Program-made: the position numbers and the translations under genes | From: Candidatus Heimdallarchaeota archaeon | GTDB lineage: Archaea; Asgardarchaeota; Heimdallarchaeia; Heimdallarchaeales; Heimdallarchaeaceae | DNA: 64,000 nucleotides | Direction: 5' to 3' | Assembly (NCBI GenBank): GCA_030603365.1 | Contig: JAUVXV010000002.1 | Location: forward strand, 96,001-160,000 | Part shown: positions 1 through 11,552 of the stretch, in pieces | Layout of the letters: each line of letters begins with the position of its first letter | Position numbering within the stretch: the stretch's first letter is position 1 | The notes under the pieces: generated by a model | Databases searched by the model: none | What the model saw: the letters and a program-made list of their open reading frames with translations, nothing else | Told to the model about the DNA's origin: nothing

Positions 1-1764
1 GGTTATAAAATTCAAAGATTGTTTATCTATTCATTTCTGTTGCAATTATCCATCTATGATCAGATATCAAAAGATGATGAAGAAATAATAATTTACATTG
101 ATGATTCAGAGCTGTTTTTCTCAAGAGAGAGAGATACTAACATACTTGTTCACATCTTAAAGAAACTAGAAAACAGCAGATTCAAAATCATTCTTTCTAC
201 ACCATATCCTTCACATTTATCTCCTGGAATATTTGATATGACCTATAATAGGATAATTGGTAACCTTAAATCAGCTAAATGTGTGAAATTAATTGCTGAT
301 ACTCATGGTTTTGATAAGAACCAAATTGATTACTTGAGAAGACTTCCAAAGAACAACTTACTGCTTATTCGAGAGGATTTAACAGAGAAACCAATATTAC
401 TTAATTTCTTTCCACAAGATGTTGAGAGATATGATACTCAGGTCATAGAGACTAGTAGATCTATCTCAAAGAAAGTTTCTATTTCTGCAGAAGAAAAAGA
501 AAAATTATCTATTAACTACGAAGATTTTGCAAAACTTCACCCTATCATGAGAGTAGTTCTTGAGAAACTTTCTTCAAAAGTTAATCGGGGAATTAACACT
601 GAATCTCTTCCTAATTTATTCACCCAATGGCCTAAAAATGAAGTAAAAGAAGCAACATCAGCTCTGGAAATGTTTGGATACATCTTCTTTGAATCAGTTG
701 ATAAAAAAGGCAAAAAGGATGAATTTTGGACCAGGATTACCCCAAGAGGTAAAAAATTCCTTGAGAAAATAAAATATTCAAAATTACTAGAAAAACAGAA
801 TAAACAGATTGAGATAGAAGAAACTGTTAAAGAAGATTTAGTTGGATTTGTTGAGAAACCAAATGTAGTTGAACTAAAAGAAAAAGATACAGAGGAACCC
901 TTTATCAAGAAATTACAGATTATAAGAAAGATAATTAGAGAAACAAGAGATTCTGAAGATACACCTCTTGACAAGTTAGATATTCTCAATACATTCTTGG
1001 AACAAATTTCACCTTTACTTGGTGTTGATTATACTGAAGAGAGTATAAAACTTGAAAATTTTCTTATCTCTTTGAAAAAACTACTAGAGGAACAAAGTAC
1101 TGTTGATGATATTCCTAAGAAGATTCTATTACAAATATTCCAGAAAGCTCTATCACAAATAGATGGCATTCAAATCAAAGCTACCTATGGAGAAGAGACC
1201 ATTTCTAGTCAAGATGAAGAATTCATTAGCAAGATAATTGACAAAGAATTGAGTTCAGAAAAATGGCAAGAATTCGAAAGAGATATTTTCCTAACAGAGA
1301 TTCCTGAATTGTCAGAGATTTCTAAGGATAAAAAACAGATTGCAGATTTACTAAGTTCGGAATTTCCAGAGGAAGTTCTTCAAGGGTTAGAACTATCTTT
1401 AAAACTTCCAAAAGGAGAGTTTATTGAAATTACAAAGGATGCTATAGCTTCATTGTTACAGATAAAAACAACATTCTTCCCAAATATGAAATCAGAAGAA
1501 TATCTCGATGAGATCAATACTTTCTTTAAATCAACTGGTTATCCTGAACCTTATGAAGAAGCTCAGCAATTATTATGGGAATATTCTATTGTTGACAAGA
1601 AAGATTCTTCTAAGTCATCATATACTCAAAAAAACAGGAGAGAGATTGTTGAAAGTATTCAGAAGGAAACTGATGTTTTTGATTTCGATACGAGTGCTAA
1701 AAACAAGGATAGTCTTGTAAATCAGCTCAAAAATAACATCAGGAAAAGGATAAATAATGATTAG
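1..1764 (+). CDS. 5'-truncated HerA/FtsK/VirB4-like P-loop ATPase (C-terminal part) with a winged-helix domain and acidic helical tail
   Basis: Frame is open from base 1. Walker-B-like IIIYIDDSE, then IILSTPYPSHL...NRIIGNL...YLRRLP, matching the HerA-family STQxPxxl...N..i.G.L...i..Lp pattern. wHTH-like segment EVKEATSALEMFGYI...WTRITPRGKKFL. Walker A lies outside the window. Confidence 0.6.
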   Translation, partial: GYKIQRLFIYSFLLQLSIYDQISKDDEEIIIYIDDSELFFSRERDTNILVHILKKLENSRFKIILSTPYPSHLSPGIFDMTYNRIIGNLKSAKCVKLIADTHGFDKNQIDYLRRLPKNNLLLIREDLTEKPILLNFFPQDVERYDTQVIETSRSISKKVSISAEEKEKLSINYEDFAKLHPIMRVVLEKLSSKVNRGINTESLPNLFTQWPKNEVKEATSALEMFGYIFFESVDKKGKKDEFWTRITPRGKKFLEKIKYSKLLEKQNKQIEIEETVKEDLVGFVEKPNVVELKEKDTEEPFIKKLQIIRKIIRETRDSEDTPLDKLDILNTFLEQISPLLGVDYTEESIKLENFLISLKKLLEEQSTVDDIPKKILLQIFQKALSQIDGIQIKATYGEETISSQDEEFISKIIDKELSSEKWQEFERDIFLTEIPELSEISKDKKQIADLLSSEFPEEVLQGLELSLKLPKGEFIEITKDAIASLLQIKTTFFPNMKSEEYLDEINTFFKSTGYPEPYEEAQQLLWEYSIVDKKDSSKSSYTQKNRREIVESIQKETDVFDFDTSAKNKDSLVNQLKNNIRKRINND

Positions 1765-11200: not shown

Positions 11201-11552
11201 TCTAGATAGTGAAGGTAGAATTTTAGTGAATAGAGATGTAACATTCCAATACTTAGCATCTAATGGATCAATTATTGCATCAGAAGATATAGCTACTGAT
11301 TACAATGGAAAAATCTTAATTGATCTCAATACTAATAGTAATGCTGAAAACGCAGAAGAAGTATATGTGGTCTTCAAGGGTGAAAAATACTATAATTCTT
11401 GTGATATTCTACTAATAATCAGTGATTTCATAGTTAAGATGCAACAAGGCTTACTTGATCCATATTTCTTTGTCTACAGTTCTGCAGCAGCACTTTTTAT
11501 AATCGTACTAACTCTTGGTTCCAGTTATCTCCTGAAAAAGAGAAAAAGATGA
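5205..11552 (+). CDS. Giant cell-surface protein with tandem bacterial Ig-like (Big) repeats, adhesin-like
   Basis: N-terminal signal/TM; many ~90-100 aa beta-rich repeats with TD/NxxG.A...PG.Y.I...F.G...Y..S; numerous NxS/T sequons; C-terminal TM followed by KKRKR. Confidence 0.85.
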   Translation: MRDLRRVIFLFVLLLFVPQPVTQLVFNSLIEPSSMASDSSYIIEYNPETDYIFEDKIIRITPISIEEYEESTASNSPSPPHLSPGIYPSLTSAAGDASTLRRGDILDASALSEYELLGYVPVDRGYHYWYDLQQVAGDEDSSSSSITENKIAVEFNSIVDIDVMAFSFNLSDISIPIANVINFYLADNLNDYQNDYLMFSEISFHTYNSQKNNPNAPLLFTFWNHPLTTPIDNQITADTPYYVILESSADFMLQTSSDLTGSDDNSVYTFESSLWNEQTGIDIDMEIYTGSLVQSSSLGADGASNLLYDSLFTTGVNLKIVANYYDSSLLYDSSSDFLDIIILDSFNPEFLYLSTPPTAEYNDQIQLIARVENSHHQPLRGELIDFYVSDDNQTWSLLTQASSEEDGYAILSYTILESSGTKYFKIILDLLAAYSSTTQEKETILVSAPQINCVFGSAVGSHNLALFQLAVQVQDNDGTPIVDHIVLFFMQGMIDPIFTYTNETGWATTANGYIGWNFGFYPNSYWVSMSMDAGLYNYPSTTYGDINISKNDISIQAQETLQGIWNEPLDISLIFTDAESDLISNLNYEVVVFNNETGLNTSLGLYQTNVNGEGLISFTEGFFEPGEYMVFIKVNALNYIYLEKAIPLLIESDQATIYVNIVEDVSYIYGSSVHLEVYVTDHFGNPLEDIQVLVHVSLPNYIDFWDDIHVLNTNSSGYAVFDLILSMNVGDVLNILFTTAGYYNGDILYYKGATPFVAYFTCVPAPTNFVDLVDISCTNQETITISGRLFSNGNPISSQTVCISILGEQFFVITDSNGYFTLTYQLNEGGTIQVDIFYDSSTNYLDTDQTIYLYCDPCTITLTGDDIYHDTADPVTFIVLIESAYGTNPQGVAVDFYWYDGENWIYLDTVYSDVFGVVIFTPGISFPLGNYLWKAEVALSEDWEQAEVIKILKVGIDTSIVLYTPSTVEYHETITLTAYVTDEPGNPILVEVAFYINQIYIGSATTDIDGYAVLTWFVDLAPGDYEIVAQMAATGMFLSSSNNAYVTIEKTSSYISCDDEFIFYSESADLEIHLYTTTSNISTVYVTVNITDILEEQLLTDSNGLAIWSIALLDPGVYTVRIYFMGNSFYYSSELLITLQVDKMPTTINFTAPNQEYEPIYEVTGYINDQFYQPIEGVTLVLYVNGTEVATTTSDVFGYFEFVLNLNPGIYVIEIEYSGDDYYLSANGQKTVYIWKIETSVQSDVVWEDMTVTVETLLLDSNNQPISNQLVFFYLDGIYVDHTLTNSSGYAFIILNGITPGIYELEIVFSGTTIYSSSSQTIVIDQDKLQTEMIVEIFGGIYGTETTTIEVYLTSEGNPLVGKNVVLIINGQNYAGVTNSSGYLLISLDTFTNAGTYSLSVDFLGDAVYTAVNIGTSFYISKAESQITLQFNYLDYLPILSGVLITPTALAGVDIFIYDGVNYLDTVQTDALGNFEFFLLLSAGTYQIEVEFEGDENHLGFRKIIQVQIYKTTVQIDSPASLNQTYGAETSFIIYVEDVLGNSLAISIIIKLDGIYYATIITNASGYATVILTADIEAGNHILTLEFQGNDDYYQTSQNISIYTKYEIILDDLQTLPSMYGDEGLVTGELNNYGGNLPLVEVTLIINGEAYTTTIDPSGSFIFVIDSDLPTGTYSAILIIEETTAVVYFEHSFMVERTKGQATINLDYDERTFNDISDVVGSVEFDSVGLEGVVIVIYINGNEMGTLVTDINGQFVIPGSWLEHAPGLYTLKITALIDNANIAVTSNEFALELIRDSATIEISYVDTKVEQELQFNIQLTDSQHNNLPYYSITITVNGTEYELISNGAGVVLFTLLLDCAGVLYILLTGLETTYYNSFAEAYEVEIERTQTIINVAERQIPYNDSKGLAVQLKSEFGNAIANQSLLIMVDSNVNTPVTDENGTVYINIEEYALGNHSLFIDFADTENYLGIKLYANMEIVPQETQIIIVYDESQVYLQLLDSEGRILVNRDVTFQYLASNGSIIASEDIATDYNGKILIDLNTNSNAENAEEVYVVFKGEKYYNSCDILLIISDFIVKMQQGLLDPYFFVYSSAAALFIIVLTLGSSYLLKKRKR

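Follow-up and report, generated by a model that had tools for sequence, protein, structure and literature searches.

Why should a gene for a RadA recombinase stand one nucleotide (nt) ahead of a gene for a giant immunoglobulin (Ig)-like surface protein in an Asgard archaeon? The two genes lie in a stretch of 64,000 nt, here called the window, from the Candidatus Heimdallarchaeota assembly GCA_030603365.1, where it occupies positions 96001-160000 of contig C15 of the source Heimdallarchaeaceae genome, G000 (G000:C15:96001-160000). A preliminary description read the first four genes of the window, for a HerA/VirB4-like ATPase, a SWIM-Hel308 helicase, RadA and the Ig-repeat protein, as a module for contact-dependent DNA transfer and suspected that more of it lay upstream. 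These four genes proved to be the tail of a nine-gene co-oriented cluster, with five further genes upstream, outside the window, and related clusters that combine membrane, surface and recombination genes were found in about 15 Asgard families. It is likely that the membrane and DNA parts of the cluster act together, and the reading favoured here, held at a little under even confidence, is that of a membrane-anchored machine for DNA uptake from or exchange with other cells, feeding dedicated recombination enzymes; contact-dependent DNA transfer is what we infer on this reading. The parts of the G000 cluster are as follows, in contig coordinates upstream of the window and in window coordinates within it.

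C15:89116-90957, same strand as the window genes: gene A, a 613-amino-acid (aa) anchored surface protein (signal and C-terminal transmembrane segment)
C15:91014-92441, same strand: gene B, 475 aa, two transmembrane segments, predicted tether of the pseudo-ATPase
C15:92438-93094, same strand: gene C, a 218-aa polytopic zincin-like membrane protein
C15:93084-94130, same strand: RadB-like ATPase
C15:94188-94664, same strand: PD-(D/E)XK-type nuclease candidate, 158 aa
Window 1-1764, plus strand, 5'-open (whole gene G000:C15:94645-97764): pseudo-ATPase, C-terminal 587 aa of 1039 aa
Window 1757-3955, plus strand: Hel308/Ski2-like helicase paralogue with an inserted SWIM finger
Window 3341-3382, plus strand: SWIM zinc finger (C529, C531, C540, H542)
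Window 3969-3988, plus strand: radA promoter, a pyrimidine-rich element followed by a TATA box (3981-3988)
Window 4013-5203, plus strand: RadA paralogue with conserved Walker A/B and loop regions
Window 5205-11552, plus strand: 2115-aa membrane-anchored surface protein with tandem Ig-like repeats

The four co-oriented open reading frames (ORFs) of the window were recovered as first described, together with the 8-nt overlap between the pseudo-ATPase and helicase genes and the TGA-G-GTG junction, a 1-nt gap, between the radA stop and the start of the 2115-aa gene. Membrane and DNA genes overlap within single operons at C-RadB, nuclease-pseudo-ATPase-helicase and radA-Ig gene. The proposed co-transcription of all four window genes probably does not hold. 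The helicase-radA junction carries insertions of 1.3-8.2 kb in 7 of 13 Heimdallarchaeaceae members, the TATA box that had been noted before radA stands 32 nt upstream with a similar box conserved in relatives, and radA and the Ig gene remain 1-14 nt apart in 12 of the 13, which bears out the coupling of a recombinase to a giant surface protein; these observations indicate that there are probably two transcription units, and the interrupted junction and the TATA box make one four-gene transcript unlikely. The pyrimidine-rich element before the radA TATA box resembles one before gene A. When 3058 genes were ranked by a promoter matrix derived from relatives, gene A came 4th, its two paralogues took ranks 1 and 3, and radA fell outside the top 30; the training was partly circular and the shared element is a lead only. 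A sigma-70 promoter scan, a model ill-suited to archaea, stayed at chance level. Candidates for a dedicated transcription factor B (TFB) in G000 and its relative G006 gave no TFIIB hits, and a gene of the cluster in Ca. Borrarchaeum (family f28 in the grouping used below) gave weak ones only; the TFB-like gene there lies at L163:16734-18092.

Gene order was compared within Heimdallarchaeaceae in 21 relatives of G000 (labelled Ca. Heimdallarchaeota or Heimdallarchaeaceae), which, as related genomes, are not independent evidence for linkage. The order A-B-C-RadB-nuclease-pseudo-ATPase-helicase, then radA and the Ig gene, holds on every contig that spans it, with gene A relocated in G004-G007. 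Two complete genomes hold the nine genes within about 22 kb in shuffled order (radA, three genes, Ig gene, B, C, RadB, nuclease, pseudo-ATPase, helicase, A), and the genes that flank the cluster there map to scattered G000 contigs. Linkage survives rearrangement and recurs across Asgard families, and the main conditions named as refuting the module, unconserved linkage and a sole housekeeping radA, did not come true.

In a comparison set of 400 genomes, grouped as families f1, f2, f3 and so on, the nuclease occurs in 64, including 26 of 30 Heimdallarchaeaceae, 20 of 22 Hodarchaeales and 11 of 12 members of f7; it was found in 0 of 12 f4 genomes and had no match among 135 f20 genomes. Genes around it encode the dead ATPase, RadA or RadB paralogues, a giant Ig-like protein and zincin-like and two-transmembrane proteins, as well as XPD-like, Hef or Hef-like and MrfA-like helicases (the XPD-, Hef- and MrfA-like members, and the RFC large subunit mentioned below, refer to clusters across Asgard families and not to the nine-gene set). 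G000 itself has an overlapping pair of degenerate Hef-like and XPD-like helicase genes 45 kb upstream (G000:C15:48806-52367; L158:4806-8367), homologues of which sit inside the cluster in other families. Broader profiles recovered related clusters in f10-f14 and f28-f33 and incomplete ones in f3, f24 and f25, and a dead ATPase fused to transmembrane segments was found on short contigs in f8 (Ca. Asgardarchaeum) and f9. Gene orders and strands vary among these families; of the genomes searched, those of f4, f20 and f27 yielded no such cluster. Most Asgard lineages keep such a cluster, which is apparently undescribed; a literature search, with subscription papers mostly outside its reach, found no published description of it.

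The central protein of the cluster, taken at first for an active HerA/VirB4-like ATPase and translocase, retains the fold and has lost the activity. Its gene starts 1355 nt upstream of the window, and the full-length product of 1039 aa comprises an N-terminal alpha/beta domain, a dead ATPase core, a winged helix (residues ~620-720) and a helical tail. Foldseek matched its predicted structure (mean predicted local distance difference test, pLDDT, 63) to HerA (E 5e-10) and the VirB4 protein TrwK (E 9e-10), and a fold search aligned residues 226-609 with DndH (Z 26.0, root-mean-square deviation (rmsd) 3.3, 321 residues), residues 236-599 with VirB4 (Z 24.7, rmsd 3.3, 327 residues) and the core with TrwB (Z 21.5), with the HerA-fold defence proteins DndH, TdpAB and Sir2-HerA ranking high. 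A viral fold library gave nothing beyond the same HerA/VirB4 match, and a profile search of 1.8 billion proteins linked the pseudo-ATPase weakly to DUF87/HerA proteins. These proteins carry GxxGxGK[ST] and DE at positions where the cluster-linked copies have neither, Walker A (GxxxxGK[ST]) and Walker B DE being missing from the cluster-linked pseudo-ATPase in every lineage aligned. The degenerate Walker B lies at window nt ~85-120, and the inactivity could not be seen in the window alone because the Walker A position falls outside it. The gene is under strong purifying selection (ratio of nonsynonymous to synonymous substitution rates, dN/dS, ~0.04-0.07, a rough value with dS near saturation). 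Since the ATPase motifs are lost, the protein cannot be an ATP-driven translocase, and its sequence suggests that it is probably a scaffold, not a motor. Two other HerA/VirB4-like ATPases in G000, anchored by transmembrane segments, have an intact Walker A and a CedB/CedD-like layout (C8:14587-17433, L155:2587-5433; C3:38193-40601) and are conserved in Heimdallarchaeaceae and part of f7. The gene at C8:14587 occurs in 27 of 30 Heimdallarchaeaceae and 6 of 12 f7 genomes, unlinked to the cluster, and its product could be the missing motor.

A complex prediction for pseudo-ATPase residues 8-600 with B residues 95-250 scored 0.77, with the best of three controls at 0.00; this mark was attained by 58 of 80 solved pairs and 2 of 110 mismatched pairs. 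The runs share at least 87% of contacts, the partner pLDDT is at least 77, and the predicted interface pairs strand 78-87 with strand 171-181. The model supports binding of B to the N-terminal domain of the pseudo-ATPase, and the pairing recalls that of CedB and CedD, whose N-terminal domains are reported to combine into a single VirB4-like domain (PMC11868833). In f10-f14 and f31 a transmembrane gene lies directly 5' of the dead ATPase gene, and in f8, f9 and f28 transmembrane segments are fused to the dead ATPase; a 1417-aa protein of Ca. Borrarchaeum (L163:9669-13922, minus strand) carries two units of transmembrane segment plus domain fused to a dead HerA core and winged helix. Small transmembrane ORFs precede B in f9, f10 and f14, and such ORFs, of 84-150 aa, lie just 5' of a B-like gene at L185-L186 (G116), L189 (G051) and L188 (G049); these are possible pilin-like subunits. 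G000 has a second zincin-like gene on contig C12, and second copies of gene C were observed at L138:8945-9610 (G006), L137:8489-9211 (G005), where the copy adjoins gene A, and L140:2135-2797 (G001), where it follows an A-like and a B-like gene.

The giant surface protein, a putative adhesin, does have the tandem Ig-like repeats read at the outset, together with N- and C-terminal hydrophobic segments. It is acidic (D+E 13.1%, K+R 2.8%), single copy and 2109-2121 aa long in full-length Heimdallarchaeaceae members, and these features would suit a structural stalk more than they would an adhesin of variable form or a receptor for DNA. Two further giant proteins of G000, of 2268 aa (C1:74176-80982; L159:2176-8982) and 1872 aa (C8:83923-89541), are homologous to gene A over their first 590 aa and continue with several transmembrane helices; their promoters carry an element nearly identical to that of gene A, and the first had no Pfam match. 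Searches of Pfam, NCBIfam, PDB and Atlas likewise gave no useful match for A, B or the nuclease candidate, whose assignment rests solely on an invariant E25, D49, E64-x-E66 motif.

The recombination enzymes of the cluster are extra copies, in keeping with the earlier suggestion of a non-housekeeping module, and canonical radA, hel308 and nurA-herA-mre11-rad50 genes were found elsewhere in the genome. The window RadA, one of four RadA-family genes in G000, retains its catalytic motifs; it sits on a long branch and falls below the NCBIfam cut-offs, and with three better Rad51-family matches elsewhere it was rejected as the housekeeping RadA. Monophyly of the cluster-linked RadAs is unsupported by the tree, in which branches are long. 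The window hel308 is a second copy, the canonical one lying at C17:76183, and the SWIM-Hel308 assignment was upheld, with motifs I, II and VI intact and the four SWIM ligands invariant in 13 orthologues; identity with canonical Hel308 was excluded by its score (162 bits vs a cut-off of 1200), the SWIM insertion and the absence of a helix-hairpin-helix match at the C-terminus. A nurA-herA-mre11-rad50-type operon, read from gene order and motifs, occupies C9:6670-13243. In G031 the helicase is broken into two pieces, of 342 and 380 aa (L058:3359-5528), and in G074 radA and an MrfA-like gene are split (L098-L099), through either assembly error or decay.

Together these parts suggest a possible division of labour. 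The giant Ig-like protein and A would make up the outside, serving as spacer or contact stalk; the strong acidity of the Ig protein speaks against a DNA receptor. B, C and the second zincin-like paralogue would form the membrane part. By completing the N-terminal sheet of the VirB4-like pseudo-ATPase, B would anchor that protein at the membrane as a scaffold, and its winged helix may hold DNA. Energy would come from intact ATPases (Hel308-SWIM, XPD-like helicases, the RadB-like protein) or from the unlinked active VirB4-like protein; the nuclease would trim the DNA, and the RadB-like/SWIM pair would load the RadA paralogue for strand exchange. The narrower proposal of an ancestral Asgard system for cell-to-cell exchange of chromosomal DNA, built of an inactivated VirB4-like scaffold, zincin-derived membrane proteins, Ig-like giants and dedicated recombinases, is put forward tentatively, at perhaps a third of full confidence.

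Several results weigh against a DNA-transferring machine. The motif check of cluster-linked copies left the cluster without an active VirB4 motor, and the C8:14587 gene was not found in Hodarchaeales with the G000 query. RadA is unlinked in G005. The predicted contact of B with the pseudo-ATPase may reflect likeness to solved VirB4, and the argument from transmembrane fusions is one of architecture, because the N-terminal domains show no significant profile homology: no pair among those of B, the pseudo-ATPase, the f28 fusion and CedB-like proteins reached E < 0.01, B matched an f7 protein with a probability of only 8% in a profile comparison, and the likeness of the pseudo-ATPase and B domains to CedB/CedD or VirB4 N-termini is weak (fold search rank 39, rmsd 15.9). 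The membrane genes that had been expected upstream are there, and no CedA/VirB6 or ComEC channel was identified among them. The confident model of C (pLDDT 81) matches an M50/zincin-like fold, weakly (Z 6.6; Foldseek E 0.6; Atlas TM-score 0.57); its HExxH zinc motif is lost in f1, f2 and f7 and retained in a G397 homologue, and a paralogous family retains HxxxH and PDxxD, from which C is probably a dead intramembrane peptidase fold. C was set aside as CedA/VirB6 because its fold search listed no such match, an absence that does not exclude a CedA/VirB6-like channel. A pilin was not identified either, and no small two-transmembrane ORF lies between the nine genes.

The lack of a motor or recognisable channel is also what recommends the main rival, a membrane-tethered hub for repair and recombination of the cell's own DNA in which no DNA crosses the membrane, and in which the dead VirB4-like scaffold would anchor chromosome copies or stalled forks at the envelope for processing by spare XPD, Hef, Hel308 and RadA paralogues. 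Fork and lesion enzymes in the cluster (XPD-like, Hef, MrfA-like, RFC large subunit) and the winged helix after the dead core fit it as well; it leaves unexplained why two extracellular proteins, one of them 900-2600 aa long, should be conserved and stay linked to radA in different families, and why full housekeeping sets coexist with the cluster, and it is judged rather unlikely. Less probable again are two modules that have only their regulon and their location in common and work apart from each other, one a scaffold for the envelope or for secretion, the other made up of repair paralogues induced by stress. Two promoters in Heimdallarchaeaceae would accommodate them, as would the variable gene order and strand between families, the lack of support for the cluster RadAs as one clade and the dispersal of second zincin-like, XPD-like and Hef-like genes in G000. 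The overlap of membrane and DNA genes within single operons stands against such a division, as do the recurrence of their interleaving after rearrangement and the predicted binding of B to a pseudo-ATPase that bears a winged helix.

The high rank of HerA-fold defence proteins in the fold search (DndH Z 26.0, TdpAB, Sir2-HerA) and the M50-like character of C raise a further alternative, a membrane-signalling or anti-invader system in which the surface proteins sense contact or virus, the signal passes through the pseudo-peptidases, and incoming DNA is destroyed or recombined by the nuclease and helicases. Unlike patchy defence islands, however, the genes are single copy and near-universal within families (26/30, 20/22 and 11/12 for the nuclease), under strong purifying selection and of host-like GC (31-37% at the loci, genome mean ~33%), and this system is given only a slim chance. 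No relaxase or integrase was seen in the cluster loci, which, together with the GC content and the near-universal presence in three families, led to the rejection of a conjugative or mobile element.

The proposed membrane-anchored machine for DNA uptake or exchange was compared with known systems. The Ced system, found in Sulfolobales and Desulfurococcales, and the Ted system of Thermoproteales are likewise chromosomal archaeal systems with a HerA/VirB4-fold protein tied to the membrane, and Ted loci adjoin recombination genes (PMC9905601). In the Asgard cluster, however, the ATPase is dead, B lacks an ATPase domain, neither a CedA/VirB6 protein nor a CedA1 pilin was identified, and the additions are zincin-like pseudo-peptidases, a pair of surface proteins and a RadA, a RadB, a nuclease and superfamily 2 (SF2) helicases of its own; it may work in the manner of Ced/Ted, but lacking an active ATPase and an identified channel or pilin, it is not filed there. 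VirB4/TrwK with VirB3, and TrwB, of type IV secretion systems share its core fold and the arrangement of a two-transmembrane gene before or fused to the ATPase-like gene, whereas the Asgard protein has no Walker A and carries a C-terminal winged helix, and no relaxase, VirB6, VirB8 or mobile-element context was seen at its loci. Archaeal HerA-NurA-Mre11-Rad50 resection with RadA, RadB and Hel308 uses the same enzyme families; the canonical operon lies elsewhere in G000, and the cluster has no NurA, Mre11 or Rad50. The competence machinery of Gram-positive bacteria (ComEC, ComFA, DprA, RecA) offers a possible logic, as an analogy only, by which an SF2 helicase would drive uptake and pass the DNA on to the recombinase; no ComEC, ComEA or DprA homologue was seen. 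The eukaryotic Shu complex (SWS1 and Rad51 paralogues) recalls the SWIM finger encoded beside RadA and RadB paralogues, although the Asgard SWIM is inserted in a helicase and the comparison is one of the motif.

Downstream of the cluster, 2-oxoacid:ferredoxin oxidoreductase alpha and beta genes (window 11926-14009, plus strand) begin 373 nt after the Ig gene; they are placed outside the module because they have their own TATA box and adjoin the Ig gene in five relatives only. They are followed by four tandem paralogous membrane proteins of 147-190 aa (14011-16366, plus strand), two of which were scanned without a Pfam match, and by five tandem paralogues of 656-673 aa (17989-28286, minus strand), the first a family 5 solute-binding protein. 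In two stretches within window ~30000-42000 the GC content falls to 26-28%, vs ~33% elsewhere, possibly marking an acquired island.

What is new in the cluster is its parts list, the VirB4-like fold alone being common to it and Ced/Ted, and if it imports DNA as Ced does, it would be better termed a far variant of the Ced kind. A recent review is silent on DNA exchange, DNA transfer and conjugation among Asgard archaea (PMC12993045), and extra RadA paralogues in these archaea have been noted from trees alone (PMC12722695). The question is testable, since candidate genes, a predicted contact and two promoters can be named and the Hodarchaeales, which carry the cluster, include characterised strains (PMC13705601). 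Even as a repair hub, the cluster would link envelope and DNA in a conserved machine in which several enzymes are dead and for which no counterpart has been described. Asgard archaea are the closest microbial relatives of complex cells, and the way in which they acquire and recombine DNA matters for understanding how gene transfer gave way to sex; if the narrower proposal of an ancestral exchange system is true, the lineage that founded the eukaryotes would have had a parasexual machinery separate from Ced/Ted and from bacterial competence.

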